From an uncultured Pseudomonadota bacterium (lineage in GTDB: Bacteria > Pseudomonadota > Alphaproteobacteria > Acetobacterales > Acetobacteraceae), in contig CAWHUC010000002.1 of NCBI GenBank assembly GCA_963832525.1, positions 5,563-69,562 of the forward strand: a stretch of 64,000 bases of DNA, in the 5' to 3' direction. Positions 12,954-57,011 of this stretch are shown here, in pieces. A model generated the notes under the pieces. The model searched no databases. It was not told where the DNA came from and worked only from the letters and a program-made list of their open reading frames with translations. How positions within the stretch are numbered: position 1 is the first letter of the stretch; every line of letters begins with the position of its first letter. The position numbers and the translations under genes were made by a program.

Positions 12954-12965
12954 GGCGCGCGCTCC

Positions 12966-14093: not shown

Positions 14094-14094
14094 C

Positions 14095-14415: not shown

Positions 14416-14783
14416 CAGATCACCTCCGGTGCCAGCGAAATGATCTTCATGAACTTCCGCCCGCGCAGCTCACGCACCACAGGTCCGAAGATGCGGGTGC
14501 CGATCGGCTCCTGCTGCTTGTTGATCAGCACCGCCGCATTGCGGTCGAAGCGGATCGCGCTGCCGTCCTGTCGGCGGACGGGGAACGAGGTGCGCACGAT
14601 CACCGCCTGGTGCACGTCGCCCTTCTTCACCTTGCCGCGCGGAATCGCTTCCTTCACCGACACCACGATCACGTCGCCCACGCTCGCGGTGCGCCGGCGG
14701 GTGCCGCCCAGCACCTTGATGCACTGCACCCGGCGCGCGCCCGAATTGTCGGCGACGTCGAGGTTGGTCTCGACCGAGATCAT
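14415..14783 (-). CDS. rplN: 50S ribosomal protein L14
   Basis: [27 protein letters not shown]. Confidence 0.95.
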
Positions 14784-15076
14784 GCCGCCACTCCCTGCTC
14801 AGCGCCGGAAGCGGGTGCGACGCCCGCGCCCCACAGCGGGGTACCGTTGCGCTCGACCACCAGCCAGGTCTTGCGCTTGCTGATCGGGCGGCACTCCTCG
14901 ATGCGCACCATGTCACCCACCTTGCACAGGTTGGCCTCGTCGTGCGCCGCGTATTTCTTCGAGCGACGGATGAACTTCTTGTACAGCGGATGCATCACGC
15001 GGCGATCGACAAGCACCGTCACGGTCTTGTCCATCTTGTCGCTGGTGACCCGGCCGGTCAGAACGCGCCTCGGCAT
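14780..15076 (-). CDS. rpsQ: 30S ribosomal protein S17
   Basis: [47 protein letters not shown]. Confidence 0.95.
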
Positions 15077-15094
15077 GATTGTCGGACCCTATCT

Positions 15095-15328
15095 CTACGA
15101 CCGCGTCGCGGCGGCTTCGGCGCCGCGGCTGCGTTCGCCCATGATCGTCTTCACCTTCGCGATCTCGCGCCGGACGGTGCGGATCCGTGCCGTGCCCTCG
15201 GACTGGCCGGTGGCGCGCTGGAAGCGCAGGTTGAACTGTTCCTTGCGCAGATCGAGCAAGGACTGCTTCAGCTCGTCCGGCGTCCGGGTGCGCACGTCGG
15301 AGACCTTGGTCTCGGGGTTCTTCGCCAT
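15095..15328 (-). CDS. rpmC: 50S ribosomal protein L29
   Basis: 77 aa [42 protein letters not shown]; ATG 15326-15328 inside a long spurious listed ORF. Confidence 0.9.
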   Translation of the reverse strand: MAKNPETKVSDVRTRTPDELKQSLLDLRKEQFNLRFQRATGQSEGTARIRTVRREIAKVKTIMGERSRGAEAAATRS

Positions 15329-15744
15329 CACGCGTCTCCCATCCGCTGCACGATCTTGGTGCGGATCGGCAGCTTGGCCGCGCCCAGGGTCAGCGCATCG
15401 CGCGCCACGTCCCCGGCCACACCGTCGAGTTCGAACATGATCCGCCCCGGCGCCACGCGGGCCACCCAGAACTCGGGCGTGCCCTTGCCGGAGCCCATGC
15501 GGACCTCGGCCGGCTTCTGCGAGACCGGAACGTCCGGGAAAATGCGGATCCACACCCGCCCGGTGCGCTTCATCGCGCGGGTGATGGCACGCCGCGCCGC
15601 CTCGATCTGGCGCGCGGTGATGCGCTCGGGTTCCAGCGCCTTCAGCCCGAAGGTGCCGAAGTTGAGCTGGGTACCGCCCTTGGCGTTGCCGTGGATACGG
15701 CCCTTGTGCGCCTTGCGGAACTTTGTGCGCTTGGGTTGCAGCAT
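15328..15744 (-). CDS. rplP: 50S ribosomal protein L16
   Basis: [19 protein letters not shown]... Confidence 0.95.
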
Positions 15745-15762
15745 CGATGCCTACCGTACCAT

Positions 15763-16440
15763 CTACCGTTGCGGCGCCTGTTCGGCGGCGCGGCGGTCCT
15801 GCGCCGTCGGGTCGTTTGCCAGGATTTCGCCCTTGAATATCCACACCTTCACGCCGCAGGTGCCGTAGGTCGTCTTCGCGGTCGCCTGGCCATAGTCGAT
15901 ATCGGCACGCAAGGTGTGCAGCGGCACACGGCCTTCGCGATACCACTCGACCCGCGCGATTTCCGCGCCACCCAGCCGGCCGCCGCAGTTGATGCGGATG
16001 CCCTGGGCGCCGAGGCGCATCGCCGACTGCACGGCCCGCTTCATCGCCCGGCGGAACGCGACCCGGCGTTCCAACTGCTGGGCGATGTTCTCGGCCACCA
16101 GCACGGCGTCGATCTCGGGCTTGCGGATCTCGACGATGTTCAGGGTGACTTCGGCCTTGGCCATCTTGCCGAGGGTCTTCTTCAATACCTCGATGTCCTG
16201 GCCCTTCTTGCCGATCACCACGCCGGGCCGCGCGGCATAGATGGTCACGCGCGGCTTCTTCGCCGGACGTTCGATCACCACCCGCGACACGCCGGCCCCA
16301 CGCAGCTTCTCGCGCAGGTGCCCGCGCAACTTCAGGTCCTCGTGCAGCAGGCGGGAATAGTCGGCCCCCGCGTACCAACGCGAATCCCAGGTGCGATTGA
16401 TGCCGAGCCGCAGCCCGATCGGATTGACCTTATGACCCAT
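15763..16440 (-). CDS. rpsC: 30S ribosomal protein S3
   Basis: [24 protein letters not shown]; ATG at 16438-16440 inside the longer listed ORF. Confidence 0.95.
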
Positions 16441-16922
16441 TACGCAGCCTCCCGCCCCGGCCGCGCCGACCGCTTGTTCTCTGCGCGCTCCGTCGTCCGA
16501 TTTCCGGCACGCTCCGCCGTCCGGTTTCCCGCGCGCTCCGCCACGACTTCCTGTGTGCGCTCCGCGACGACGATCTTGAGATTGCTGAACCACTTCTCGA
16601 CACGCGACGCACGCCCGCGGCCGCGCGCCTGGAACCGGCGCATGACGATCGCGCGCCCGACCTCGGCGCGGCTGACCACGAGGCGATCGACATCCAGCCG
16701 ATGGTTGTTCTCGGCATTGGCGATCGCACTCTCCAGCGCCTTCTTCACCGCGCCGGCAATGCGCCGCTTGCTGAACGCGAGCGTTGCCACCGCCTGCTGC
16801 GCCGGCAGGTTGCGAATCAGCCCCGCAACCAGGTTCAGCTTGCGCGGCGAGACCCGCAGGTTGTTCACGATCGCCTGCGCCTCGGTATCGGGCAGGCCAC
16901 GCGGATGATTGGGCTTGCTCAT
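16440..16922 (-). CDS. rplV: 50S ribosomal protein L22 with repeat-containing C-terminal extension
   Basis: [17 protein letters not shown]...[37 protein letters not shown] is uL22; the tail [24 protein letters not shown] is encoded by ~21-nt tandem repeats around 16480-16570. Confidence 0.9.
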
Positions 16923-16926
16923 CGTC

Positions 16927-17205
16927 TCAGCCCCGCTTCGCTTTCTTGTCGCCCGAGTGGCCGGTGAAGGTCCGGGTCGGCGAGAACTCGCCGAACTTGT
17001 GGCCCACCATGTTCTCGTTCACCTGCACCGGCAGGAATTTGCGACCGTTATAGACGCCGAACGTCATGCCGACGAACTGCGGCAGGATCGTCGAGCGGCG
17101 CGACCAGATCCGAATGATCTCGTTGCGGCCCGACGCGCGCGACGCCTCGGCCTTGTTCAGCAGATACCCGTCCACGAACGGGCCCTTCCAGACGGAACGT
17201 GCCAT
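16927..17205 (-). CDS. rpsS: 30S ribosomal protein S19
   Basis: [16 protein letters not shown]...[13 protein letters not shown]. Confidence 0.95.
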
Positions 17206-17220
17206 CCTACGTGCCCTTCG

Positions 17221-18052
17221 TCACTTGCCGACCTTGCGGCGGCGGATAATCAGACTGTCGGTGCGCTTGTTGCCGCGCGTCTTGTAGCCCTTGGTCGGCT
17301 GACCCCACGGGCTGACCGGATGCCGCCCACCGGAGGATCGGCCTTCGCCGCCGCCATGCGGGTGATCGACCGGGTTCATCACCACGCCACGGTTGTGCGG
17401 GCGCCATCCCAGCCAGCGCTGCCGGCCCGCCTTGCCGATCTTCTGGTTCATGTTGTCCGGGTTGGACACCGCGCCGATCGAGGCCATGCACTCGGCCCGC
17501 ACCAGCCGCACTTCCCCCGACATCAGCTTGATCTGCGCGTAGCCCGCAGTCCTTCCCGACCAACTGCGCGTAGGTCCCGGCCGAGCGGGCGATCTTGCCG
17601 CCGGCACCGACCTTCATCTCGATATTGTGCACGATGGTGCCGACCGGCACCGAAGCGAGCGGCATCGCGTTGCCCGGCTTGATGTCGGCGCGCTGGCCGG
17701 CCACCACCGTATCGCCCACGCGCAGCCGCTGCGGCGCCAGGATGTAGGCCAGCTCGCCATCGGCATATTTCACCAGCGCGATGAACGCGGTGCGGTTGGG
17801 GTCGTATTCCAGCCGCTCCACCACCGCCGGCACGTCGAACTTGCGGCGCTTGAAATCGACCGCGCGATAGGCCTGCTTGTGCCCGCCGCCGCGAAACCGC
17901 GAGGTGATTCGGCCGTGGTTGTTGCGCCCGCCGGTGCCGCTCTGGCCCTCGGTCAGGCCCTTGACCGGCTTGCCCTTCCACAGCCCAGCGCGGTCGATCA
18001 GGACCGTGCCGCGCAGGCTCGCCGTGACCGGGTTGAAACTTTTCATCGGCAT
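17221..18052 (-). CDS. rplB: 50S ribosomal protein L2 (frame broken near 17548)
   Basis: The N-terminal 170 aa are uL2 up to ...[14 protein letters not shown]. The conserved remainder, [16 protein letters not shown]...[25 protein letters not shown], is in ORF 17221-17607. An extra T sits in GAC[T]GCGGGC. Confidence 0.9.
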
Positions 18053-18062
18053 CGTTCGTCTC

Positions 18063-18392
18063 TCACGCCAGCCCGGTGGTGAAATCGATCTGCTGGCCGG
18101 CGGCGAGCCGGACCATCGCCTTCTTCACGTCCGACCGCACGCCCGGCCGGCCCTTGAACCGCTTCGTCTTGCCCTTCTGCACCAGGGTGTTCACCGCCAG
18201 CACCTGGACGCCGAACAGCCCCTCGACCGCGGCCTTGATCTCCGGCTTGCGGGCTTCCAGCGGCACTCGGAACACGTACTGGCCGTGTTCAGAGAGGCCG
18301 GTCGCCTTCTCGGTGATCACCGGGTTGCGGATGATCTGGTACATCGCCTCGCGCGAAAGCTGCGGCCGGCGCTTGATCTTCGTCTCGCTCAT
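18063..18392 (-). CDS. rplW: 50S ribosomal protein L23
   Basis: [24 protein letters not shown]. Confidence 0.95.
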
Positions 18393-19042
18393 GCCGCCTC
18401 TCCCTCGGCCGCCGCGGCGCCGTGGCCGAGGCGCGCAGCGAGGCCCGCGAGCCCGGCCGCGGTGATCGCCAGAACGTCGTGGCGCAGGATGTCGTACACG
18501 TTCGCCCCGATCGTCGGCAGCACGTCGATCTCGCGCATGTTGCGGCTGGCGCGCAGGAACCCCGGATCGACCGCGCCGTCGACGATCAGGCAGGACCGCC
18601 AGCCCAGCGCCTTCACCTGCCGCGCCAGGTCCTTCGTCTTGGTGCCGTCGCCGGCCTTCGCCGCGTCCAGCACCACCAGCTTGCCCTCGGCCTGCTTCTG
18701 CGACAGCGCCGAGATCAGCCCGAGCCGCCGGACCTTCTTGTTCAGGCTGTATTCATGGGAGCGCACCACCGGCCCGTGCACCACCCCGCCGTGGCGGAAC
18801 TGCGGCGCCCGCAGGCTGCCCTGGCGGGCGTTGCCGGTGCCCTTCTGGCGATAGGGCTTCTTGGTCGTGCCCTGCACCTCGGACAGACCCTTCACCTTGT
18901 GGTTGCCGCCGCGGCGCTTCGCCAACTGCCAGTGCACCACGCGCGCCATGATGTCGGCGCGCGGCGCGGCGGCGAAGATCGCCTCCGGCAGCTCGGCGGT
19001 GCCGGCCTCGGCATTGTCCAGGGTCTTGATCGGAACTTGCAT
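18389..19042 (-). CDS. rplD: 50S ribosomal protein L4
   Basis: 217-aa ORF, ...[55 protein letters not shown]; S10-operon position. Confidence 0.95.
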
Positions 19043-19054
19043 CGCTGTGTTTCC

Positions 19055-19741
19055 TCAGGCCGCCGCCGGCGCGCGCAGGGCGGCCGGATAGGGCGCCTCG
19101 GCCGGCCGCACCCGCTTCACCGCGTCGCGCACCAGCACGAAGCCGTTCTTCGCCCCGGGCACCGCGCCCTTCAGCATCAGCAGCCCCTTCTCCGCATCCA
19201 CCGCCGCCACTTCGAGGTTGAGCGTGGTGATCCGCTCCTGCCCGAGGTGCCCGGCCATCTTCTTGTTCTTGAAGGTCTTGCCCGGGTCCTGCCGGTTGCC
19301 CGTGGACCCATGGCTGCGATGACTGATCGAAACGCCGTGGCTCGCTTCCAGGCCGGAGAAGTTCCAGCGCTTCATCGCCCCGGCGAAGCCCTTGCCCTTG
19401 CTGGTCCCGGCCACGTCCACAAGCTGGCCTGGCACGAAATGCGCCGCCGACAGGGAAGCGCCCGAGTCCAGCACTGCATCCGCCGCCACCCGGAACTCGG
19501 CGAGCTTCGCCGGCGGCTCCACCTTGTGCTTGGCGAAATGCCCACGGTTCGGCTTGGAGACGTTCTTCACCTTCGCCCGGCCCCAGCCCAGTTGCACCGC
19601 GCTGTAGCCGTCCTTCTCCACCGTGCGCGCCAGCACGACGCGCACATCGTCGAGATGCAGCACGGTGACCGGCACATGCGTGCCGTCGTCGCGGAAAATC
19701 CGCGTCATCCCGAGCTTCCTGGCGAGCAATCCGGTTCGCAT
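19055..19741 (-). CDS. rplC: 50S ribosomal protein L3
   Basis: [16 protein letters not shown]... Confidence 0.95.
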
Positions 19742-19753
19742 CGTCCCCGCCCT

Positions 19754-20062
19754 TTAGATCTTGATCTCGACATCGACGCCGGCAGCGAGGTCGAGCTTCA
19801 TCAGCGCATCGACCGTCTGCGGCGTCGGTTCCACGATATCGAGCAGGCGGCGATGCGTGCGCATCTCGAACTGCTCGCGGCTCTTCTTGTCCACGTGCGG
19901 CGAACGGTTCACGGTGAAACGCTCGATATGCGTGGGCAGCGGGATCGGTCCGCGAACGCGGGCACCCGTGCGCTTCGCCGTGTTCACGATCTCGCGGGTG
20001 CTGTTGTCCAGCACCCGGTGATCGTACGCCTTCAGGCGGATGCGGATATTCTGGTTGTCCAT
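19754..20062 (-). CDS. rpsJ: 30S ribosomal protein S10
   Basis: 102 aa [44 protein letters not shown]; ATG 20060-20062. The listed 523-aa ORF is a frameshift chimera with tuf. Confidence 0.95.
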
Positions 20063-20080
20063 CGTTCGCTTTCCGTAGCG

Positions 20081-20121
20081 GCAAAACGACCGCCGGCGCC
20101 CCGGAGACCGGGGCGCCGGCG
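20081..20121 (-). terminator. intrinsic terminator/attenuator hairpin between tuf and rpsJ
   Basis: Minus strand: CGCCGGCGCCCCGG-TCT-CCGGGGCGCCGGCG (14-bp perfect stem) followed by GTCGTTTTGC. Confidence 0.6.
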
Positions 20122-20133
20122 CCCGAGCAGGTC

Positions 20134-21325
<1,192 letters not shown>

Positions 21326-21370
21326 CGTCTTGTCTCCGTGGACCTCTGGTCCGTCCAGTTAGAGCCCGTT

Positions 21371-21847
21371 CTACCAGCGGTAGTGGCTGAACGCCTTGTT
21401 GGCTTCCGCCATCCGATGGGTGTCTTCCCGCTTCTTCACCGCCGAACCGCGGTTGTTCACCGCGTCCAGCAGCTCGTTCGACAGCCGGTCTTCCATCGTG
21501 TGCTCGCCGCGCTTGCGGGCGGCGTCGATGATCCAGCGGATCGCCAACGCCTGCCGCCGCTCGGTCCGCACTTCGACCGGCACCTGGTACGTCGCGCCCC
21601 CGACCCGGCGGGAACGGACTTCGACGGCCGGCTTCACGTTGTCCAGCGCCTCGTGGAACATGCGCACCGGATCGGCCTGCGAGCCGCCGCGCTTGCGCAG
21701 CACATCGAGCGCCGAATAGACGATGGTTTCGGCCGTTGACTTCTTGCCGTCGTACATCAGCACGTTCATGAAACGGCTGATCACGACATCGCCGAACTTC
21801 GCGTCCGGCAGGATTTCGCGCTTGACGGCGCGGCGGCGGCGAGACAT
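21371..21847 (-). CDS. rpsG: 30S ribosomal protein S7
   Basis: [20 protein letters not shown]...[15 protein letters not shown]. Confidence 0.95.
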
Positions 21848-21859
21848 CGCGGTATCTCC

Positions 21860-22231
21860 TTACTTCGGCCGCTTGGCGCCGTACAGCGACCGGCGCTGGC
21901 GACGCTTGGCGATGCCCTGGGTATCCAGCACGCCGCGCAGAATATGGTACCGCACGCCGGGAAGGTCCTTCACGCGCCCGCCGCGGATCAGCACCACCGA
22001 GTGCTCCTGCAGATTGTGGCCCTCGCCGGGGATGTAGCTCACCACCTCATACCCGTTGGTCAGCCGCACCTTCGCCACCTTGCGCAAAGCCGAGTTCGGC
22101 TTCTTCGGCGTGGTGGTGTAGACGCGGGTGCAGACGCCACGCTTCTGCGGGCAGCCCTGCAGGGCCGGGACCGTGTTGCGGCCCTTCTGCGGTTCGCGCC
22201 CGTGGGCGATGAGCTGATTGATGGTCGGCAT
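21860..22231 (-). CDS. rpsL: 30S ribosomal protein S12
   Basis: 123 aa [52 protein letters not shown]; ATG 22229-22231. Confidence 0.95.
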
Positions 22232-22468
22232 GGACCTCGGTCTCGATGTTCGCTGCGGTTCGCCCGACCCTTCCCCCAACCCGATAGCGACCGTCGTCCA
22301 CGGGCGAAACCCGCGGGCATGGGGACATCCCCCACGCGGGCGGGTTGAAACACGGACCCGCGGCCTGGGTCTTCGGGCACGTCGTGCCGAAGACGGCGCC
22401 GCGGGCGGGGCTTCTGCCTGCGAAGACGACGACCGCCGGAACGTGTCGGGGGTCGGCCGAGGGGGCGG

Positions 22469-22497
22469 AACCTAGTGGGGGGGCTCCCGGGTGTCAA
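22469..22497 (-). promoter_or_regulatory. candidate sigma70-type promoter for the rpsL operon (TTGACA-N17-TAGGTT)
   Basis: Minus strand has TTGACA (22497-22492), a 17-nt spacer and TAGGTT (22474-22469), about 240 nt upstream of rpsL; motif match only. Confidence 0.3.
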
Positions 22498-22626
22498 GCG
22501 CCCGCAGGCCGGGGACCTGCCTGGTCCCCGGAGGCCGGTTGCCCCGCCCGTTGCCGGCCCGGCGCGTGCGGCGTAAAGCCGCCCGTCCCCACCGTGCCCC
22601 AAAGGCCGATACAAAAGAGGTGCCGC

Positions 22627-33951: not shown

Positions 33952-35244
33952 CTATCCCAGCAGGCCGGCGCCGGAAAACCCGCCGAACACGCCGAGGACG
34001 CAGGTCACCACGGCCACCGCCAGCACCAGCCCGTAATACCAGCCTCGCAGCCGCCACGCCGGTGGCAGCGCCCGCCGCGCCAGCGCGATCAGGAAACCGA
34101 GCACCACCGGCAGCAGCAGCGCGTTCATCACCTGCACGCCCACATTGAGCGCCACGAGGTCGGGCCAGAACCCCACCACCAGGCAGCCGCCCACCACGCA
34201 GACCGCATAGACGCCGTAGAACCACCGCGCCTCCAGCGGCCGGTATTCCAGCGAGCGGCGATAACCCGACACCTCGCCCAGCCCCCAGGCCAGCGCCAGC
34301 GAGGCGACGATCGCCGCCACCATCCCCGCCCCCAGCACGCCGGCCCCGAACACCGCGTTGCCGACTGCAGTGCCAAGGAACGGGGTCAGCGCCCCGGCCA
34401 TCTCCCCCACCGTGTTCAGCGAGGCATCCGGGCTGGCCCGCCCGATCGTCGCCGCGCAGGCGATCAGCACCGCGGCCATCACGAGCTGGGTGATGACCGC
34501 GCCCACCGCCGTGTCCCAGCGGGCAGCCGACAGATGCTCGGGCCGCAGCTTCTTATCGGCGACGGCGGACTGCTGATAGAACACCATCCACGGCATGATG
34601 ACCGCGCCGATATTGGCCGCGACCAGGTAGACGTAGGCCTTGTTGGCGAACGGAATCGACAGCGCGCCGGCCGCGAGCGCGTGCGGATCCGGATGGGCCG
34701 CCCAGGCGACGAAGAAGAAGGCGAACTCGAACAGGCCGACGAAGATCGCGGCCCGCTCCACGCGCCGGTAGGACCCGGTCAGCACCACGGCAAGCAGCGC
34801 CACCGCGGCGATCGGCAGGGTCAGGCCGCGCGGCAGGCCATAGAGTTCCCCCACGCCGGCGACGCCCGAGAACTCGGTCAGCAGTGCGCCCACGGTGGCG
34901 ACGCCGAGCCCGGCGGCGGAGACCCAGGCCCAGGCCGGTCCGAAGGTCTCGCGGATCAGCTCGCCATGGCCGCGGCCGGTGAAGATGCCGAGCCGCACCG
35001 TCAGCTCCTGCACCACGTAAAGGATGGGGATCAGGACGAATTGCAGGGCCAGCAGCCGGTAGCCCCATTGGACCCCGCTCTGCCCGGCGGTGATGACGCT
35101 GCCGACGTCGGTATCGGCCAGCATGACGACGATGCCGGGGCCGAAGACGGCGACGAACCGGGCCAGGCGGCGGCCTGTCGCACTGCGGCCGGTAGGATCG
35201 AGCGCGGCCGGGGCGGAGGCGTTCATCGGTTTGCGGTCCGTCAT
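33952..35244 (-). CDS. mntH: NRAMP-family divalent metal (Mn2+/Fe2+) transporter
   Basis: FGPGIVVMLADTDVGSVITAGQSGVQWGYRLL...AANIGAVIMPWMVFYQQS, hallmarks of Nramp/MntH; 430 aa, polytopic. Confidence 0.85.
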   Translation of the reverse strand: MTDRKPMNASAPAALDPTGRSATGRRLARFVAVFGPGIVVMLADTDVGSVITAGQSGVQWGYRLLALQFVLIPILYVVQELTVRLGIFTGRGHGELIRETFGPAWAWVSAAGLGVATVGALLTEFSGVAGVGELYGLPRGLTLPIAAVALLAVVLTGSYRRVERAAIFVGLFEFAFFFVAWAAHPDPHALAAGALSIPFANKAYVYLVAANIGAVIMPWMVFYQQSAVADKKLRPEHLSAARWDTAVGAVITQLVMAAVLIACAATIGRASPDASLNTVGEMAGALTPFLGTAVGNAVFGAGVLGAGMVAAIVASLALAWGLGEVSGYRRSLEYRPLEARWFYGVYAVCVVGGCLVVGFWPDLVALNVGVQVMNALLLPVVLGFLIALARRALPPAWRLRGWYYGLVLAVAVVTCVLGVFGGFSGAGLLG

Positions 35245-35455
35245 CTCGGAGGGGGGCGCCGGCGTAATTGCGAAGTATTCTTAGTTGCAGCTACCGTGAT
35301 GCATGGCTGAGTGTCAAGCCGTGATGCGGACGTGGCTGCCATACCGGCCGGCGAGAACACGAGGGTCCTACCAACTCCCCCCGCGGAACCGCGAGTGGGA
35401 CGCACGTGCGTCTGGCCCCAGGGGTCTGCGCGGTACCACGTTTTTCTTTCATATA

Positions 35456-35484
35456 TTGACACACAGAAAGGGAAACGCTATAAA
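35456..35484 (+). promoter_or_regulatory. near-consensus sigma70 promoter TTGACA-N17-TATAAA
   Basis: TTGACA at 35456-35461, exactly 17 nt spacer, TATAAA at 35479-35484, 34 nt upstream of ATG 35518, in a 40% GC stretch (24/60 G+C in 35441-35500). Confidence 0.55.
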
Positions 35485-35517
35485 TGCCGGTAGCGAGCAG
35501 TCCGAAAAAGGCCCGAG

Positions 35518-36811
35518 ATGACCGCCAGCATCCACGCCCTGCATCCGCGATCACCCCCTGTCGCGGGATTCCTGAGAATCGGGCACACCGGGCATCGAAA
35601 GCTCGAACACCTCCATGCGGCGGGTCGCTTTCCTTACCGGCGCGTGGGGTTCGACGCCGCGCATGTCTGCGATCAATCCGAACTTCTGAAGACCTTGATC
35701 GCCGGCGGATGCGAAATCGTGCTGGACCCAAATTTCGCGGAAATGGCAATGCCCGGCCGCTTCGGGTCGGCGGCCGGCAAGCTGCCTTGGGCCAACCCCA
35801 ATCGACCCTGGCAAGAGTCAGATTTTGGCCGCATTCGAAACCTGGACACGGCCAAGGCGATTGCTGAATTTGCAATCCGACACGGAGTAAACGTGGTTCT
35901 CACTCCCGCGCATCTCATTGAGTTCCTGCCCGAACTCCTGGCGGAATATCGATCTTCGCATGTGCGAGGACCTTCGTCGTGAACTCGATCGCCTTGGCGG
36001 AGCAGGTATCGCCATCGATTATCAGCTCATAACGACGAACGCGCTCCTGAAGGATGCTCAAGCCCGGGATGATCTTGTCGCCGACGTCGATACCATGCCT
36101 ATCCAAAATGTTTGGCTTCGGACCTCCGGCTTTGGGGCAACAGAGACCGGCGTAGGCACGAGGCATTTCATCGAAGCTGTTCGTGGCCTGCATCGCATGG
36201 ATCGGCCTCTGGTGGCCGATTGCGTCGGCGGCTTTGCCGGCCTCGCAGCTTTGGCCTTCGGCGCCGTTGGCGGGATCAGCCATGGCGCAGGCCAAAAGGA
36301 GAGCTTCGATGCAAACGATTGGAAGGCTCTACCTTCCGACAAAAAAGGCGGATCCTCTTCAAGAATATACGTTCCCGATCTCGACCGCCACTTCAAAGAA
36401 GACCACCTGTCTGTGATACTTGCTGCGAGGGGCGGACGGTCGCGTTTCGGCTGCAATGACTCCAGCTGCTGCCGCGATGGGATCGAAGATATGGTGGAGA
36501 ATCCCGGCGCTCATTTCATCACTCAGCGCGCACGTCAACTCGAAGACCTTTCCCGTGTACCGGAGACGCGGCGGGCGGAGCACTTTCTATTGCGACACCT
36601 GGACCCAGCTATCCGCTCGGCGCGTGTGGGGACTCGGTTGGATATCTCCGAGCCAAGAGTGAAGGACACCGTTGAAAAAGCGAAGGCCAGGCTGATCCGC
36701 TTGCGTGACGCGCTTGCAGACCTGCAGGTTAACGACGCCTCCGCAACGCGGTCACGACCACCCGCCTTCCGGGGTGGCCCAAGATCGGCCGGTGTCGTGC
36801 TGGCGCATTGA
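35518..36811 (+). CDS. uncharacterised ~430-aa protein, first gene of the islet operon (two overlapping ORFs 35518-35982 and 35918-36811, probably one gene split by a frame break near 35930-35945)
   Basis: No family recognised by eye. Short hydrophobic strand-like segments (FLRIGH, EIVLDPN, VVLTPAH, AIDYQLI, VWLRTSGFG, LVADCVGG, GGISHG) alternate with helices, followed by the Cys cluster FGCNDSSCC (36452-36472). GC is lower than the flanks. The stop overlaps the start of the next gene. Confidence 0.55.
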
Positions 36812-36813
36812 CC

Positions 36814-37152
36814 ATGGCAAGCTCCGTTGCCAGGATTATCGAAGATCTGCGGGACCGTGGCGGCCTCAAAGGCACGGATGTGGCGAATGTCGCCGCCGTG
36901 TCTCCGGCGACCGTCTCACGCTGGACCTCCGGAAAAGCCAGTCCGCACCCGAAGACGCAGCTTTTGATCTCCGATCTCCGCTACATCGTCGACCGACTGG
37001 CCGACTTCTATTCGCCGGATGAGACCCGGCTCTGGCTCTACTCCAAGCATCGTCTGCTGAACGCCGAGCGCCCGATCGACCTTATTCACAATGGACGGGC
37101 CGACGCAGTGTTGGCCGTGATCGAAAGCCTGGACGAAGGGGCTTATACTTAG
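36814..37152 (+). CDS. Xre-family HTH antitoxin with C-terminal DUF2384-type domain (MbcA/ParS-like)
   Basis: HTH LKGTDVANVAAVSPATVSRWTSGKASP plus the C-terminal RLWLYSKHRLLNAERPIDLIHNGRADAVLAVIESLDEGAY signature; alternative TTG at 36808. Confidence 0.8.
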   Translation: MASSVARIIEDLRDRGGLKGTDVANVAAVSPATVSRWTSGKASPHPKTQLLISDLRYIVDRLADFYSPDETRLWLYSKHRLLNAERPIDLIHNGRADAVLAVIESLDEGAYT

Positions 37153-37155
37153 ACC

Positions 37156-37723
37156 ATGAGCGGTTCAGATCGGGTCCACGATCGAGCCATTCTGGACGCG
37201 CTGGAATCGAGCGGTGCACGTCCCTTCGCGGGCGACGTATGGCGGATCACCCGCTCGGGCCGGGACGCTCTCCGCGGCTCAAGCGCGAACGGCAGGTGGA
37301 GCCCGCAGGGCGCGTTCGAGGTTCTCTATACCAGCCTCGAACGCACCGGCGCGCTCGCCGAAATCGGATACCGTCTTGCGCTCGAGCCGGTCTGGCCAAG
37401 CCGAACTCGAACACGAGATCCACACGCTCGCGGCCCGCACCGAACGGACCCTGCGCTTCGCCGACGTCGCGGCGCTGACGCCGCTCGGCGTCGATATCGC
37501 CCGCTACGACACTTTCGACTATGGCGCGACCCAGGCGATCGCGGCAGTAGCACATTTCCTGGAGTTCGACGGGCTGCTGGTGCCCAGTGCGCGGGCGCCC
37601 TGCGCCAACCTGGTGGTCTTCCTGGACCGACTGGCCGCCGGCGCCAGCTTGGTGGTGCAGCACAGCCAGCCGGTGGACTGGGCCGCCTGGCGCCGCACTG
37701 CCCGCGCGCCCGCGCGGCGTTGA
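37156..37723 (+). CDS. RES-domain toxin (MbcT/ParT-like), frame broken near 37400
   Basis: N-terminal part [45 protein letters not shown] (Arg, Glu region). The C-terminal part, in the frame of ORF 37214-37723, reads ...[40 protein letters not shown] (Ser motif). It starts 3 nt after the antitoxin stop. Confidence 0.8.
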
Positions 37724-37754
37724 AAACCCGCCCCGGATAGACCAGAACCCGCCC

Positions 37755-39227
37755 ATGCCCGAGCTCTTCCTGCACAACAGCCTGACCCGGAAGCGGGAGC
37801 GCTTCGTCCCGCTCGATCCCACGCATGTGCGGATGTACGTCTGCGGGCCGACCGTCTACGACCTCGCGCATCTCGGCAACGCGCGCCCGGTGGTGGTGTT
37901 CGATGTGCTGGCGCGGCTGCTGCGCCTTCTGTTCCCGCGCGTGACCTATGTGCGCAACATCACCGACGTGGACGACAAGATCAACGCTCGCGCCGCCGAA
38001 AGCGGCGAGCCGATCGTCGCCATCACCGCGCGGACCATCGCCGATTTCCACGCCGACATGGCCTCCCTCGGCGCCCTGCCGCCCGACGAAGAACCCCGCG
38101 CCACCGACCACGTGGCGGAAATGATCGCGCTGATCGAGCGGTTGATCACCTCCGGCCATGCCTACGCCGCCGACGGCCACGTGCTGTTCCAGGTCGCGAG
38201 CTTCCCCGACTACGGCCATCTTTCCGGCCGCTCCCCGCGCGAACTGCTGGCCGGCGCGCGGGTGGAAGTGGCGCCGTACAAGCGCGACCCCGGCGATTTC
38301 GTGCTGTGGAAACCTTCCACGCCCGACCTGCCCGGTTGGGACAGCCCCTGGGGCCGCGGCCGGCCGGGCTGGCATATCGAGTGCTCGGCGATGTCCTGGC
38401 GCTACCTCGGCGAGAGCTTCGACATCCACGGCGGCGGGGCGGACCTGATCTTCCCACACCACGAGAACGAGCGCGCGCAGAGCCTGTGCGCCTTCCCGCA
38501 CGGCGGCTTCGCCCACGTCTGGGTGCACAACGGCATGCTGCTCGTGAACGGGGAGAAGATGTCGAAAAGCCTCGGCAATTTCCGCACGGTGCGCGACGTG
38601 CTGGCCTTGGCACCGGGCGAGGCGATCCGGCTGCTGCTGCTGAAGACGCACTACCGGGCCGCGCTCGATTTCACCGAGCCTGGGCTTGCCGAGGCGCGCC
38701 ACGAGCTGGACCGGTTCTACCGCGCGCTGGACGCGGCGCCGGACATGCCCCTGGACGCCCCCCTGGGCGCCCCCCTGGGCGCCCCCCCGGCTGCGGAGGT
38801 GCCCGAGCCGGTGCTGGCCGCCCTGTGCGACGACCTCAATACCCCGGCCGCGCTGGCCGCGCTGCACGCGCTGGCGGACGCCGCGCTGGCCGGCGATCCG
38901 GCCGCGGCGGGCGGGATGCGCGCGGCAGGCGCCGTGCTCGGCCTGCTGGGGCAGACGCCGCAGGCGTGGTTCCAGGGCGGGGCCGAGGCGGGTGGGGTTG
39001 ACCCGGCGGCGATCGAGACTGCCATCGCCGACCGCAAGGCGGCCCGCGCCGCGCGCGATTTCGCCCGTGCCGACGCGATCCGCGCCGCGCTGGAGGCCCA
39101 GGGAATCCTCCTGGAGGACGGCCCGGGCGGCACGACTTGGCGCCGCAAGCCTGTCGTCGCGACGGGTCCGGCCGCCCCACTGCGTCCCACCGCGGCCGCG
39201 CCGCGCGCCCGCACGGCGGAGCGATGA
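37755..39227 (+). CDS. cysS: cysteine--tRNA ligase
   Basis: [18 protein letters not shown] (HIGH-type), [17 protein letters not shown]; ATG 37755. Confidence 0.95.
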
Positions 39228-44843: not shown

Positions 44844-45535
44844 TCAACGGCGGATGAAGCGCCAATAGAGCGGCTGGCGGCCGGCGCGCAGCGCCTTCGC
44901 CTCATAGCGCGTCGGCGGCCAGTCCGCCGGCCGCGCCGCGGCCGGCGCCGGAGCGTCGAACCAGGGCTGTGCCGCCATCACCGTCCGCACCCACGCCTGG
45001 TAGGTCGGATCGTCGCTCGCCACCCGCCACTCCGCGCCCGGGCCGCAGCACCCGCGCCAGCGTCGGGCAGCAGCGCGGGATGCACGAAGCGGCGCTTGGC
45101 GTGGCGCGCCTTCGGCCAGGGGTCGGGAAACAGCAGGAACAGCCGGTCGAGGCAGGCGTCCGGCAGCGCCCGCAGCAGCAGCCGCGCGTCGTCGGGTCCA
45201 GAGCCGCAGGTTGGGCGGCAGCGGCGCGGTGGCCTCGCCGCCTTCCGGGACCAGGCGCGACAGCAGCGAGCAGATGCCGTTCTCGAACACCTCGCAGGCG
45301 ATCAGCCCGGCCTCGGGATGCGCGGCGACCTGCGCCAGCGCGTGCTCGCCGCCGCCGAAGCCGACTTCCAGCCACAGGGCGCGCGGACGAGGCGCGAAGG
45401 CCCCGAGCGGGATCGGCCGCCGCTGCCGGCGGGAAACGCCAGCCGCGGCAGCGTCACGTCCAGCAGCAGTTGCTGGCGCGGCCGCAGCTTGTGGCCGCGG
45501 GCGCGGCCGTACAGCCGGTCGGGCGGCGGTTTCAC
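44844..45535 (-). CDS. trmB: tRNA (guanine-N7)-methyltransferase TrmB (about 4 frame breaks)
   Basis: The pieces lie in three frames: [32 protein letters not shown] / [28 protein letters not shown]...[12 protein letters not shown]...LRLW / [43 protein letters not shown] / TLARVLRPG / [15 protein letters not shown]...RYEAKA. Breaks fall near 45415, 45195, 45066 and 45038, the last three in C/G runs. Confidence 0.85.
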
Positions 45536-45560
45536 GCCCCAGGCCAGGCGGCGGTCGGCG

Positions 45561-46754
45561 TCAGCGGCCGAAGGCCGCCTTCAGCGCCGGCACCAGGTCG
45601 GTCTTTTCCCAGGTGAAGGTGCCCTTCTCCTCGTCCGGCTCGCGGCCGAAATGGCCATAGGCCGAGGTGGGCACATAGATCGGCCGGTTCAGGTGCAGGT
45701 GCTCGCGGATGCCGCGCGGCGTCAGGTTCATCACTTCGCGCAGCACCTTCTCCAGCCGCGTCTCGTCGACGTCCTTGCCGGTGCCCTGCAGGTCGACATA
45801 CACCGACAGCGGGTGGGAAACGCCGATCGCGTAGCTGATCTGGATGGTGCAGCGGTCGGCCAGCCCCGCGGCGACCACGTTCTTCGCCAGGTAGCGGCAG
45901 GCATAGGCGGCGGAGCGGTCCACCTTGGTCGGGTCCTTGCCGCTGAACGCGCCGCCGCCATGCGGGGCGGCGCCGCCATAGGTGTCGACGATGATCTTGC
46001 GCCCGGTCAGGCCGCAATCGCCGTCCGGCCCGCCGATCACGAACTTGCCGGTCGGGTTCACGTGGAACTCCGCCTCGGGCGGCATCCAGCCGTGCGGCAG
46101 CGTGCTCTCGACGATCGGCCAGCAGCATGCGCTTGATCTCGGCCTGCTCCAGCGTCCTCACGTGCTGGGTGGAGACCACGACGCGAGGTGGCGCCGACCG
46201 GCTTGCCGTCGACGTAGCGCAGCGTGACCTGGCTCTTGGCGTCGGGCAGCAGGCCGGCGACCGAGGGGTCGCTGGATGCGGCGGCAGGTCGCGGATGCGG
46301 CGCAGGATCACGTGGGCGTAGTAGATCGGCGCCGGCATCAGCGTCGCGGTCTCGCGGCAGGCGTAGCCGAACATGATGCCCTGGTCGCCGGCGCCCTCGT
46401 CCTTGTTGCCGCCGGCATCCACGCCCTGGGCGATGTCGGCGGACTGCGAGTGCAGGTGGCAGTGCGATGTCGGCGGTCTTCCAGTGAAAGCCCGGCCTGG
46501 TCGTAGCCGATGTCGTGGATGGCCATGCGGGCGAGATGGGTCAGCAGTTCGGGCGTGACCGTCTCCGGGCCGCGGGTCTCGCCGGCCAGCACCACGCGGT
46601 TGGTGGTGACCAGCGTCTCGCAGGCCACGCGGGAATAGGGATCGGCGGCGAGGAAGGCGTCCAGCACCGTGTCGCTGATCCGGTCGGCGACCTTGTCGGG
46701 ATGGCCTTCCGAGACGGATTCGGAAGTGAACAGGAATTCGCCCGTGTCGCGCAT
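45561..46754 (-). CDS. metK: S-adenosylmethionine synthetase (about 5 frame breaks)
   Basis: [28 protein letters not shown]... / [10 protein letters not shown] / [38 protein letters not shown]... / [30 protein letters not shown] / VVVSTQH...EIKRMLL / [49 protein letters not shown]...; breaks near 46492, 46458, 46286, 46184 and 46119. Confidence 0.9.
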
Positions 46755-47101
46755 GGCATGTTCCTCTTGTCGCGGCTGTGGGTGGGCGGGCACGCGGGAG
46801 CCGGCCGCCGCCCCGGGCGGGGTGCCGGGGGCGGGCCTGATTGGCGGAAACCCTTGGATCGGTCAAGCGCGTTGCGTTACGTCGCGAGGCGGAATCTGGC
46901 CGGACCGCCGACACCCTGCGGGACCACCGCGTCGGTATTGTGCAAATGGGCCAAAGCAGCCCGGCGCTGACGCGGCGAAATGTACGTTTGGTGGGCCGCG
47001 CGGGGCAGGAATGTACGGCTGCCGGCATGGATGTGCTCATGGCGGGACTGCTCCCGCATGGACACCCGCCGGCGCAGCCGGACGCGCGGAGGTGGCGGCG
47101 G

Positions 47102-47880
47102 TCAGCCCATGCCCAGCACGTCCATCATGGAATGCAGACCCGGCCGGCCGCCCGGCCACCCACAGCGCCGCGCGCACCGCGCCCGTCGGCGAAGCGCGGC
47201 GGTCGAAGGCGCGGTGGGTGAGCGCGATGTGCTCGGTGGCGGCGGCGAAGATCAGCGTGTGCTCGCCGACCACCTGCCCGCCGCGCAGCGCGGCGAAGCC
47301 GATCGCACCCGGCTTGCGCGGGCCGGTATGGCCGTGCCGTCCGCTCTCCATCACCTCCTCCAGCACGACCCCGCGGCCCTTCGCGACCGCCCGGCCGATG
47401 CCGATCGCGGTGCCGGACGGCGCATCGACCTTCTGGCGGTGGTGCATCTCGACGATTTCGGCATCGTACTGCTTCGGCCGGCAGCGCCGCAGCCATCCGC
47501 TCGGCCAGCGCCAGCACGAGGTTCACCCCGGCGGAGAAATTCGCCGCATAGACCACCGGGATGCGCTGCGCCGCCGCCGCGACCGCCGCCTCGTCCGCCG
47601 CCGATAGGCCGGAGGTGCCGAGCACCCAGGCGGTGCCCGCCGCGGCCAGGGCCGCGGCATGCGCCTGCGGCGGTCGCGGCATGGGTGAAGTCGATCACGA
47701 CGTCACAGGCGGCGGCGAGCGCGGCAATATCCGCATGCAGCTTCGCGCCGGCGGGGACGGGGCGAGCGGAGCCGGGGCTGCCGATGCCGCCGGCGAGCAC
47801 CGCGCCGGCAGCGGGCACCGCCTCGACCAGCAGGCCCCCCATCCGGCCGGTGATGCCGGCGATACCGATGCGAAGGGTCA
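47102..47880 (-). CDS. dapB: 4-hydroxy-tetrahydrodipicolinate reductase (about 3 frame breaks)
   Basis: [16 protein letters not shown]...DVVIDFTH / [21 protein letters not shown]...[26 protein letters not shown] / [27 protein letters not shown]...[28 protein letters not shown] / [16 protein letters not shown]; breaks near 47670, 47498 and 47155. Confidence 0.85.
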
Positions 47881-54882: not shown

Positions 54883-55025
54883 TGGGGCCGCCGGCGGGTG
54901 AGCGCTCCGCCCCCGCGCGCGTTGCGCAACGCTTGCCGCGTGCTACATGCTGTCGGCGTCTGTTTCCCCCCGGCCCGCCATGAGACCCGTCTCCCGCCCT
55001 CCCCCGCAACCGCGGCCGACCATCG

Positions 55026-55835
55026 ATGGCTGCTCGTCGAGATCACAGGATGCGTGTCGCCTGCCGTCCCCGCCTGATCGCCGCATGTCTGTTCGTCGGG
55101 CTGCTGGCCGGCTGCGCCACCGCGCCGCCGCCCAGCCACCCCGAAGCGCGGGCCGAGTTCTACCAGACCAACGATCCGCTGGAGCCGACCAACCGCGTGC
55201 TGTACAAGGTGAACAATGCACTGGACGCAGCCGTGCTGCGCCCGGCGGCGGTGGCCTACAAGGACGCAGTGCCGGCGCCGGTGCGCACCGGGGTGCACAA
55301 CGCGCTCGGCAACCTCGCCACCCCGATCGTGCTCGGCAACGACATGCTGGAGGGCAAGCCGCAGCGCGCGGGCACCACGTTCATGCGCTTCCTCATCAAC
55401 ACGACCTTGGGCGGCCTCGGTTTCGTGGATGTGGCCAGCCGGATGGGCTACCCTGCGCACGGGGCGGATTTCGGCGAGACTCTGGCAATCTGGGGCGTGC
55501 CGGAAGGCCCGTTCCTGTTCCTGCCGCTGTTCGGGCCCACGGACCCGCGCGATGCGCTGGGCCGCGGGGTCGATATGGCGAGCGACCCGTTCGGCTGGGT
55601 CGGCGCGGGCACGGCTGTCACGGCGCTGAACTGGAGCCGGTTCGGGCTCACCGCCGTCGACGAGCGCTCGCGGGTACTGGGGGAGATCAGCTCGATCAAG
55701 CGGACCGCGCTCGATCCCTATGCGACCTTCCGCAGCCTGTATCGTCAGCACCGGCGCGCCCAGATCGCCACGATCCGGGCCGACAACCAACACACCGTCC
55801 CGGCCTGGTTCCCCGCTCCTACGACCGCGCATTGA
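55026..55835 (+). CDS. mlaA: MlaA/VacJ family lipoprotein
   Basis: Lipobox LLAGC; NDPLEPTNRVLYKVNNALD...INTTLGGLGFVDVAS...GETLAIWGVPEGPFLFLPLFGPTDPRD. Confidence 0.85.
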   Translation: MAARRDHRMRVACRPRLIAACLFVGLLAGCATAPPPSHPEARAEFYQTNDPLEPTNRVLYKVNNALDAAVLRPAAVAYKDAVPAPVRTGVHNALGNLATPIVLGNDMLEGKPQRAGTTFMRFLINTTLGGLGFVDVASRMGYPAHGADFGETLAIWGVPEGPFLFLPLFGPTDPRDALGRGVDMASDPFGWVGAGTAVTALNWSRFGLTAVDERSRVLGEISSIKRTALDPYATFRSLYRQHRRAQIATIRADNQHTVPAWFPAPTTAH

Positions 55836-55851
55836 CCGGAGAGCGATCCCC

Positions 55852-56473
55852 ATGCAGTCACGCCGCATCTTCCTCCCGCTCGCCGCCCTGCTGTTCGCGG
55901 CCTGGCCCGGCCTGGTCCGCCCGGCCCGCGCCCAATCGGCCGCGGACGCGGCAGCGGCGGTCGGCTTCATCCGCACCACCGGCCAGCACCTGGTCGGAGT
56001 CGTCAACGGTCCCGGCTCGGCGGAAGCCAAGAGCGCGGCCCTGACCCAGATCGTCGATCGCGATGTCGATGTCGACGGGATCGCCAAATTCTGCCTCGGC
56101 CGGTTCTGGCGCGTTGCCACCCAGGCCCAGCGGACCCAGTACCGAGCACCTGTTCCACCGCGTGCTGGTGCTGAACGTCACCTCCAAGATCGGCGACTAC
56201 ACCGGCGTCACCATCGCCGTCGGACGCGCGGTCCCGCGCGCGGAGGGCGTGATGGTGGCGACCACCGTCACCAGGCCGGGCCAGGCGCCGGCAGAGGTGG
56301 ACTGGCTGGTGAAGCAGATCGACGGGGCGCCGAAGATCATCGACGTGATCGCCGAGGGCACCTCCCTGCGGCTGACCCAGCGCAGCGACTACGCCTCGTA
56401 CATCAGCCGCCACAACGACAGCGTGCCGGCGCTGATCACCGCGCTGCGGGCGCAGGCGGCCCACGCCGGGTAG
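55852..56473 (+). CDS. MlaC/Ttg2D-family phospholipid-binding periplasmic protein (frame broken near 56142)
   Basis: Signal peptide MQSRRIFLPLAALLFAAWP...; DVDGIAKFCLGRFWRVATQAQRTQY, then the frame shifts to EHLFHRVLVLNVTSKIGDY...DWLVKQIDGAPKIIDVIAEGTSLRLTQRSDY. An extra C sits in CAGTAC[C]GAG. Confidence 0.75.
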
Positions 56474-57011
56474 GACCCGGCGGCGCCGCCGGCCGGCGGC
56501 TGTCGTAGAGCACCATCTCCCGTCCGTCGCGGACGAAGCGTTCGCGCTCGGTCATGCCGATGCCGCCGAGCACGGTGCGCGAGGCGACGTTGTCCTCCCG
56601 CGCGACCGCGACGATACGGGCCAGGCCGGCGCGCTCGTGGCCGAACATCAGCGCCGCACCGGCCGCTTCGCGCGCCAGCCCGCGGCCGCGCGCCTCCGGC
56701 CAGAGCGCGAAGCGGAGCGCGACGCCGCGCCCGTCCGCGCGCTCCATCAGCCCCGTCACGCCCTGGAACGTGCCGGGTTTCCCGGTGCCGGGACCGACGG
56801 TGCGGAGGGTCCACATGCCGTAGCCGCGGGCGGCCCAGAAGCCGATGTCGGCGGCGAGCTCCTCGGCCGCCTGCACGCGCGTGCGGACGCCGCCGAGCAT
56901 CACCGCGAAGACGCGTGGGTCGGATTTGAGCGCAACGAGGTCGGGCAGGTCGGTCCAGGCGACCGGGGTCAGCAGCAGGCGGCCGGTGCGGAGCGTCCAG
57001 GCGGGGCTCAT
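56436..57011 (-). CDS. GNAT family N-acetyltransferase
   Basis: RTGRLLLTPVAWTDLPDL...ALWPEARGRGLAREAAGAALMFGHERAGLARIVAVAREDNVASRTVL; convergent 38-nt overlap with the mlaC-like gene. Confidence 0.75.
   Translation of the reverse strand: MSPAWTLRTGRLLLTPVAWTDLPDLVALKSDPRVFAVMLGGVRTRVQAAEELAADIGFWAARGYGMWTLRTVGPGTGKPGTFQGVTGLMERADGRGVALRFALWPEARGRGLAREAAGAALMFGHERAGLARIVAVAREDNVASRTVLGGIGMTERERFVRDGREMVLYDSRRPAAPPGPTRRGPPAPAAR

Follow-up and report, generated by a model that had tools for sequence, protein, structure and literature searches.

What does a gene for a protein of about 430 amino acids do at the head of a toxin-antitoxin (TA) operon? The question is raised by an islet at positions 35250-37750 of a 64,000-nucleotide stretch of contig CAWHUC010000002.1 from an uncultured member of the Acetobacteraceae (the window), in which a gene that we call gene A is followed on the same strand by genes for an Xre-family antitoxin and a RES-domain toxin, the whole lying between mntH and cysS. 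An original prediction, made from the letters of the sequence, read the islet as a possible horizontally acquired three-component system in which gene A is co-expressed with the pair. Of the tests that it named for its own refutation, those open to computation all came out in its favour. In our best explanation it is a mobile, autoregulated three-gene operon that combines an MbcTA-type pair with gene A as a trigger or modulator, and the two breaks in its reading frames are errors of the assembly; to this explanation as a whole we assign a probability of roughly 0.55. Its parts are held with unequal confidence. We are highly confident of the operon architecture and of the MbcTA-type pair and think it probable that gene A is a functional third component, while the specific role of trigger or modulator is a tentative and rather doubtful assignment.

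Linkage of gene A to an Xre-RES pair

The close homologues of gene A number 273, are about 430 amino acids long with 57-69% identity, and are all unnamed and without Pfam domains. When 1.84 billion proteins, each of them the representative of a 50%-identity cluster, were scanned with a hidden Markov model (HMM), its family comprised 955 representatives at E<=1e-3 and 321 at E<=1e-30. Genome loci carrying the gene (29 in all) came from Sphingomonadales, Hyphomicrobiales, Rhodospirillales, Acetobacteraceae, one betaproteobacterium and one gammaproteobacterium, and in 27/27 of those that extend far enough gene A leads directly into Xre and then RES. The full triad was also present in 72 of 80 metagenome loci, from clades about 30% identical to that of the window, which were sampled with a pattern built on the most conserved motif, LLAFGAVGG, of a hand-picked eight-member alignment. 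Five of the eight exceptions are contig ends, and the other three represent one decayed locus type (L109-L111) in which gene A and Xre are frameshifted; where RES would be expected, L110, the one copy that reaches this position, has an IS110-like transposase. Homologues of gene A are also present on fourteen plasmids, and the three inspected, which are from cultured isolates and include one from an actinobacterium (Gordonia), all have the triad, annotated as a hypothetical protein, an Xre/MbcA/ParS antitoxin and a RES family NAD+ phosphorylase, and lying next to integrases or an IS91 transposase. On Dinoroseobacter shibae plasmid pDSHI06 (L114/L121; NZ_CP097546.1, 22013-27379) the module stands tail to tail with a complete Gabija system only 38 nt away (GajA, E=2.9e-220; GajB, E=1.1e-178), with the IS91 transposase and an integrase on its other side. 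Besides D. shibae, cultured carriers include Sphingomonas adhaesiva DSM 7418 (L002), Falsiroseomonas tokyonensis K-20 (L014) and Rhizobium sp. TH2 (plasmid pTH2a). The systematic adjacency of gene A to Xre and RES, on which the idea of a three-component system depends, therefore holds down to about 30% identity, and on the evidence of these sequences gene A is an obligate, co-inherited partner of the pair and not a chance neighbour.

Both halves of the frame-broken RES gene match PF08808 (31.4 and 39.6 bits against a gathering score of 23.2), and a PDB sequence search aligned RES with Mycobacterium tuberculosis MbcT (6fkg_A, E=1.2e-6) such that its residues R30, R47, Y58 and E69 fall on R27, R47, Y58 and E69 of MbcT. 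MbcT has been shown to be an NAD+ phosphorylase that requires R27, R47 and Y58 for activity and in which the Ser of the RES motif, R47-E69-S126, is non-essential (PMC6436930). In this RES clade the motif Ser aligns with Gly/Thr, and a set of 71 non-identical RES proteins from three-gene loci shows no variation at the four aligned residues or at W48 and R146. Xre matches HTH_31, HTH_3 and PF09722 in Pfam, near but below the gathering scores, and NF049845 in NCBIfam below its cut-off; against M. tuberculosis MbcA (6fkg_C) it scores E=1.5e-17 over residues 8-111. Of the features of type II RES-Xre modules, a RES domain with the residues essential in MbcT and an antitoxin with helix-turn-helix (HTH) and toxin-binding domains encoded directly 5' of the toxin are present, and this homology leads us to expect that the pair works as a type II TA system. 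In such a system the C-terminal domain of Xre would occlude the active site of RES, and RES, once freed, would phosphorolyse NAD+ to nicotinamide and ADP-ribose-1''-phosphate, with growth stop or cell death as the outcome. These loci depart from such modules in not being bicistronic, as a third gene lies 5' of Xre in 102/102 complete loci and the operator is placed upstream of that third gene.

Nothing beyond the three genes was conserved in an all-against-all clustering of flanking open reading frames (ORFs), and the flanks of the window have no nucleotide similarity to any other locus. Because the flanks differ between loci and only the three genes are conserved, the module can be described as a self-contained mobile cassette. 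The neighbours of the 27 chromosomal loci (97 genes, analysed with Pfam and PADLOC) are assorted housekeeping genes and occasional insertion sequence (IS) elements. Base composition in the window is in agreement with an origin elsewhere. The lower G+C that first drew attention to the islet was borne out, with 24/60 G+C at 35441-35500, values of 0.599 for gene A and 0.605 for Xre against 0.712 for mntH, 0.728 for cysS and 0.699 for the window, and 0.57-0.64 in the islet versus about 0.70-0.75 in its flanks along the G+C profile; G+C at third codon positions (GC3) is 0.62-0.67 in gene A versus 0.91 in cysS. The RES gene, at 0.697, is near the host value. Unrelated flanks, plasmid copies beside integrases and IS elements, and G+C below that of the host together support the horizontal acquisition that had been proposed. 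No convincing direct repeats flank the ends of the islet. An 18-nt inverted repeat, 83% complementary (35232-35249 / 35513-35530), brackets the entire 263-nt intergenic region upstream of gene A, and the divergent mntH and gene A share a CCGAGATGAC start context, which may be chance or the trace of an insertion junction.

The three proteins diverge in step, with close correlations between their pairwise distances over 71 loci (Pearson r of 0.93 for gene A and Xre, 0.88 for gene A and RES, and 0.87 for Xre and RES; Mantel 0/999), and the three therefore appear to travel as a unit without swapping of partners. Such a pattern must be weighed against the possibility that gene A is cargo, an enzyme with a benefit of its own that has nothing to do with the toxin, is stabilised by riding with the pair as an addiction module, and has no functional cross-talk with it. 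Linkage alone explains the co-divergence; moreover, Xre and RES have the sizes of MbcA and MbcT of the two-gene system and no extra docking domains, the pair persists where gene A has been deleted, and the surroundings of the loci are mainly housekeeping genes and not defence islands. Independent cargo would, however, be expected to occur alone or with other partners, and gene A was never found without a downstream Xre-RES pair in the approximately 105 loci with enough sequence, over more than 60% divergence and two phyla. The order and orientation of the genes are invariant, start and stop codons overlap, and the operator of the TA system lies upstream of gene A itself. We consider cargo an unlikely account of the locus; if it nevertheless proves correct, the finding shrinks to a TA pair that stabilises a passenger gene.

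Candidate operator, coupling and probable integrity of the operon

The placement of the candidate operator also argues for a three-gene unit. Upstream of gene A the window contains the palindrome GTTT-N3-TTTCA-N13-AGAAA-N3-AAAC, which is unique in the 64 kb, matches on both strands and has an expectation of 0 chance matches; the -35 hexamer lies inside its spacer and the -10 hexamer follows its right arm. A form of it, ttGCrTTT-N3-TTTCA-N13/14-TGAAA-N3-AAAyGC, precedes the start of gene A by 22-53 nt both in the window and in 28 related loci; among 111 loci, the exact core of the operator was present in 16, a single time in each, and had no other occurrence. In the related loci TTGACA or TTGATT sits within the same operator spacer and is followed by TATATA, TAGTAT and similar hexamers. 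The near-consensus promoter described in the original prediction (TTGACA-N17-TATAAA) is indeed present at this place, with the reservation that "near-consensus" was slightly generous for a -10 hexamer without the final T; a consensus promoter scanner, whose -10 rule demands T at position 6, did not list it.

Distant clades (L032-L108) are without the TTTCA/TGAAA palindrome and have instead three to five iterated TGTCAA, CGTCAA, TGTTCA or TGTTAA repeats, spaced about 10-11 nt apart, which lie 30-110 nt upstream of gene A and overlap the promoter. These clade-specific repeats suggest that the operator and the HTH of the antitoxin have co-evolved. By analogy, the palindrome is presumed to be the binding site of Xre or of the Xre-RES complex, which is the simplest reading, since the Pseudomonas putida Xre-RES complex acts on such a palindromic repeat when it represses its own promoter (PMC12204516). 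Xre, probably as a complex with RES, would thus bind the palindrome overlapping the -35 hexamer and repress all three genes. Because operator and promoter sit upstream of gene A, this gene would fall inside the autoregulated unit, and its expression would be slaved to the antitoxin.

The junctions between the genes are in agreement with this. As had been noted from the sequence, the three same-strand ORFs have almost no intergenic space. The TGA of gene A at 36809-36811 overlaps a TTG at 36808 and is 2 nt from the ATG of Xre, and the TAG of Xre at 37150-37152 is 3 nt from the ATG of RES. The distance from the stop of gene A to the start of Xre is between -4 and +4 nt in 25/27 loci of the clade of the window and typically 10-60 nt elsewhere, and the median gap between Xre and RES in 98 loci is 7 nt. 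A conserved operator and promoter upstream of gene A, together with junctions of -4 to +4 nt, argue for a single transcription unit, so that the predicted co-expression of gene A with the pair is supported at the level of sequence. At the other end of the operon, a terminator scan found no intrinsic terminator 3' of RES; the RES stop is only about 32 nt from the cysS start (37723-37756), with no terminator-like structure found between them, and transcription from the islet promoter may run on into cysS.

Natural variants of the operon provide a view of how its parts depend on each other. In 7 of the 29 genome loci (L021 and L024-L029), which derive from five sequencing projects, gene A has undergone independent internal deletions of 87 to about 380 codons, with the operator retained and with Xre and RES of full length wherever the locus reaches that far, and disruption of Xre or RES was seen in 0/27 of the genome loci. 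Three of the deletion loci (L021, L026 and L029) have kept an in-frame mini-ORF that runs from the start codon of gene A to its native stop beside the Xre start, which suggests that translation of Xre depends on ribosomes arriving from upstream; gene A would in this case be translated ahead of Xre and coupled to it. As gene A has been deleted repeatedly while Xre and RES stayed intact, we conclude that it is dispensable for neutralisation of the toxin. The pattern fits an addictive pair that is hard to lose with an upstream component that is costly or conditionally useful, and is therefore as expected if gene A is a trigger or sensor without which the system is disarmed. If the seven disruptions fell at random according to gene length, the probability that all would lie in gene A and none in RES is about 0.08, which is suggestive only.

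The same loci bear on the proposal that gene A is a chaperone-like protein or second antitoxin, comparable to SecB in TAC, which is needed for folding of Xre or neutralisation of RES. Tripartite TA systems with a helper protein exist and set a precedent, and the translation of gene A first and in coupling with Xre would provide it in at least equimolar amounts. If gene A were required in this way, however, its loss would be lethal, and seven loci lacking most of it keep a full-length Xre and a RES with its catalytic residues. Its conserved polar and Cys3His residues, described below, point instead to catalysis or metal binding, and a Foldseek search gave no SecB-like fold. We regard a chaperone function as highly improbable.

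The deposited assembly interrupts the reading frames of both gene A and RES, and its annotation accordingly lists fragments only (154 aa and 283 aa for gene A, 115 aa for RES). One reading of this is that the present copy is dead and decaying and that its frameshifts are real, and decayed copies are indeed known, in L109-L111 with their IS110-like insertion and in the deletion variants. The details of the breaks speak against it. That of gene A consists of one extra base at 35915-35938, between a conserved HLIE and the invariant Trp141, and with one base removed the gene encodes 430 aa that can be aligned over their full length with homologues of 430 aa, at 57-69% identity; that of RES is likewise one extra base, G at 37403. 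Apart from these single bases the coding sequence is conserved throughout and free of stops and deletions. An independent assembly of run ERR11593882, Logan contig L030 (1934 nt), is identical to positions 35928-37862 of the window at 1934/1935 positions, is without G37403 and encodes an intact 188-aa RES; as it starts at 35928, the extra base of gene A most likely falls at 35915-35927, provided that L030 is free of errors. In addition, a GC3-based frame scan followed by Pfam found metK (45535-47124, minus strand), an essential gene, to be spread over three frames by two frameshifts, and mlaC to be spread over two frames by one. Since metK and mlaC are broken in the same 64 kb, indel errors are likely to be common in this assembly. 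We conclude from these sequence comparisons that both frame breaks in the islet are probably assembly errors and that the locus is probably intact in the organism, so that decay of this copy, which the original prediction had listed among the outcomes that would refute it, is improbable. Coordinates are collected in Table 1.

Table 1. Positions of the islet genes, their predicted control elements and other genes of the window referred to in the text
Feature	Position	Strand	Remarks
Candidate palindromic operator	35440-35476	plus	Encloses the -35 hexamer; conserved upstream of gene A
Predicted sigma-70-like promoter	35456-35484	plus	TTGACA 35456-35461, 17 nt, TATAAA 35479-35484
Gene A	35518-36811	plus	Two frames in the assembly (ORFs 35518-35982 and 35918-36811); 430 aa once joined
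Xre-family antitoxin, MbcA-like	36814-37152	plus	112 aa; N-terminal HTH and C-terminal toxin-binding domain
RES-domain toxin, putative MbcT-like NAD+ phosphorylase (by sequence)	37156-37723	plus	Two frames; 188 aa without the extra G37403
mntH (Nramp in Pfam)	33952-35244	minus	Flanks the islet
cysS (CysS in Pfam)	37755-39227	plus	Flanks the islet
metK domains	N ~46736-46476; central ~46398-46123; C ~46037-45603	minus	Each in a different frame
mlaC segments	55630-56505; 56045-56470		MlaC profile 22-62 and 64-165, respectively; downstream of intact mlaA (54984-55832)

Other genes of the window may be affected similarly. The dapB gene (C domain at 47040-47522) may be broken too, and an AMP-binding ORF at 59446-60705, between L-PSP endoribonuclease and glutathione S-transferase (GST) genes, covers no more of the AMP-binding domain than its final 70 positions, together with the C-terminal domain, and is truncated or frameshifted. 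At about 10300-22500 on the minus strand there is a long series of short high-GC3 genes in the layout of a ribosomal-protein operon, and on account of this layout the window is taken to be core chromosome.

Fold and possible roles of gene A

The RefSeq label for gene A is "hypothetical", and searches of Pfam (2025), NCBIfam (2026), PADLOC (PADLOC-DB v2.0.0, 2023) and PHROGs with single proteins and with 60 diverse members (for Pfam at E<=1) gave no match; a sequence and profile search of the PDB returned only noise (aprataxin, E=1.2; SNAP-25, E=0.06). The earlier statement that gene A could not be placed in any family has thus held up, and it matches no characterised housekeeping family. An AlphaFold2 model of a 69%-identical homologue (P0002; predicted local distance difference test score (pLDDT) of 88 and predicted template modelling score of 0.88) consists of a (beta/alpha) barrel at about residues 16-293, a Cys-rich loop with C312, C317, C318 and H332, and long C-terminal helices at 329-405. 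The tail at 405-430 (36733-36808 in the window) is predicted to be disordered, with pLDDT below 50 over 422-430; it is conserved inside the clade of the window (RSR...FRGG...SAVLGR), as would be expected of a docking motif or degron, and is not conserved in distant clades. Among the 60 diverse members D70, W91, G238 and G256 are invariant, H132, D145, W199 and R352 are conserved in at least 95% and W141 and R153 in at least 90%, position 234 is Asp or Glu in 98%, E261 is near-invariant, and the four Cys/His ligands are conserved in 87-93%. In the model, the invariant acidic and His residues would lie at the ends of barrel strands. With a predicted TIM barrel, conserved polar residues and a Cys3His cluster, gene A looks like an enzyme.

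The best Foldseek match of the model was the tRNA-guanine transglycosylase (TGT) of Zymomonas mobilis (E about 1e-6, TM-score 0.40-0.56 over about 410 columns), by a marginal lead, with the barrels of oxaloacetate decarboxylase and pyruvate kinase close behind at E about 6e-6; this single Z. mobilis enzyme fills the match list through redundancy of the PDB. In a library of viral protein models, gene A matched uncharacterised phage proteins and two queuine tRNA-ribosyltransferase models. Membership of gene A in the TGT/DpdA family, to which the Cys/His cluster and the Foldseek result had pointed, was considered and dropped, as hhalign gave a probability of 0.5% against Escherichia coli Tgt and 0.35% against a seven-sequence TGT alignment, and the TGT family PF01702 was not matched at E<=1 by any of the 60 members. 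The spacing of the Cys/His residues also differs from the zinc signature of TGT, being C312-x4-C317-C318-x13-H332 in gene A versus C302-x-C304-x2-C307-x25-H333. Because the profile comparisons are null and this spacing differs, we describe gene A as a putative TIM barrel with a TGT-like layout and keep it out of the TGT/DpdA family.

An enzyme-like protein encoded beside a predicted NADase invites the suggestion that gene A is a co-effector, a metabolite enzyme acting on ADP-ribose-1''-phosphate or a related ribosyl or nucleotide compound, either making the damage irreversible and harder for phages to repair or recycling the product for recovery; gene A would then act on the NAD-derived product of the toxin. 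Such a role would suit the enzyme-like predicted fold with its invariant acidic and His residues at the barrel strand ends, and the best structural matches are enzymes of N-glycosidic bonds (TGT). Products of RES enzymes and their reprocessing are, besides, a known battleground between bacteria and phages (bioRxiv 10.64898/2026.01.28.702374). Set against this are the absence of any sequence or profile link from gene A to a ribosyl- or nucleotide-processing family, a TGT match scarcely above those of other TIM barrels, and searches in which macro, Nudix and phosphatase signatures were not found in gene A. We think a co-effector role unlikely.

In the trigger or modulator role that we favour, liberation of the NADase would be tied through gene A to a cue, for example infection, a nucleotide or a ribosyl compound, and the addiction pair would thereby be turned into a conditional defence or abortive-infection system. 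A more inclusive formulation, in which gene A is a new enzyme family and a working third component of RES-Xre modules, whether as a trigger responding to such cues or as a reprocessor of ADP-ribose-1''-phosphate, and in which the three genes form a widespread tripartite NAD+-depletion system, has in our estimate a little less than an even chance of being correct. Support for a defence role of the module is thin, and consists of the precedent of aRES, discussed below, and the one plasmid copy adjacent to Gabija.

Several observations weigh against our explanation. The observations do not discriminate between trigger, co-effector and cargo as the role of gene A, and linked genes that share their inheritance are expected to co-diverge in any case. 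The 97 neighbours of the 27 chromosomal loci include no recurrent family and no enrichment of defence genes, only scattered single PADLOC matches, and no homologue of gene A was found in 50,697 phage records. In the window itself, the -10 hexamer is without its conserved final T, L030 begins at 35928, just inside the ambiguous zone of the gene A frameshift, none of five repaired variants looked up in a public protein collection recovered an intact copy of the exact gene A protein, and look-ups with the fragments of the source annotation returned no contig.

Comparison with known systems

Full-text literature searches found no description of a three-gene RES-Xre system, only two-gene systems and stand-alone aRES, in keeping with the original suggestion that this architecture had not been described. 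The Xre-RES pair is itself already known, and what appears to be new is a RES-Xre module with an obligate third, enzyme-like gene. RES-Xre systems (MbcTA, ParST, NatRT and Xre-RES) have been studied as two-gene modules, as leads for drug targets in M. tuberculosis, as drivers of persistence and as phage-defence NADases. We note that a large branch of these systems carries an obligatory, co-regulated and enzyme-like third gene that has so far been unnamed. Activation of RES toxins is poorly understood, and the explanation may, for this branch, lie in the adjacent gene. A well-conserved family of 955 representatives thereby gains a functional context that can be tested, for which the conserved operator, the geometry of coupling and the natural deletion series are ready-made experimental constructs.

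MbcTA (Rv1989c/Rv1990c) of M. tuberculosis is the closest solved relative of both Xre and RES. The proteins are of similar size (112 aa for Xre here versus 115 aa, and 188 aa for RES here versus 186 aa), the antitoxin is encoded directly 5' of the toxin in both, and R27, R47, Y58 and E69 of MbcT are all kept here. In contrast, MbcTA has been described as a two-gene system, and here the candidate operator is followed by a gene for 430 aa, which is translationally coupled to the antitoxin gene behind it. P. putida Xre-RES, Sphingobium ParST and Pseudomonas aeruginosa NatRT combine the same two domain families and are all bicistronic. ParT differs in that it ADP-ribosylates Prs instead of degrading NAD+. 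None of these three was returned by the PDB sequence search with RES at E<=1, and they are therefore likely to be more distant from this RES than MbcT is. The palindrome in the promoter through which P. putida Xre-RES is autoregulated (PMC12204516) is matched by the conserved palindrome here, a candidate operator.

A third gene embedded in a TA operon is itself not without parallel, being found in TAC (HigBA with a SecB-like chaperone), HipBST and PaaR-PaaA-ParE, and three-component modules of a COG2856 protease, Xre and a toxin have been predicted, in which the third component is thought to control the antitoxin (Makarova 2009, PMC2701414). The third component here is an unrelated 430-aa protein with a predicted TIM barrel, and is not a chaperone, split kinase, regulator or metalloprotease; unlike its counterparts in TAC, HipBST, PaaR-PaaA-ParE and the COG2856 modules, it is encoded first in the operon and is dispensable for neutralisation. 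Assignment of the locus to the TAC type was rejected, because the predicted fold of gene A is a TIM barrel and not SecB-like and because loci without gene A keep Xre and RES intact. With TGT/DpdA the likeness is confined to a comparison of folds, in which a C-terminal Cys/His cluster follows both the barrel of TGT and the predicted barrel of gene A. In the defence models of PADLOC-DB v2.0.0, gene A and RES had no match at E<=1, and Xre had only weak, HTH-level matches to RmrA.

The remaining comparison is with aRES, a RES NADase directed against phages that yields nicotinamide and ADP-ribose-1''-phosphate (Osterman et al., bioRxiv 10.64898/2026.01.28.702374). aRES is a stand-alone protein of 300-600 aa with two domains, an N-terminal PF18870 and RES, and has no antitoxin or operon partner, whereas the RES described here has 188 aa, contains PF08808 only and is accompanied by an Xre antitoxin and gene A. 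Should gene A prove to be a trigger or to reprocess the product of the toxin, the operon would constitute a tripartite NAD+-depletion system distinct both from the two-gene RES-Xre modules and from aRES.

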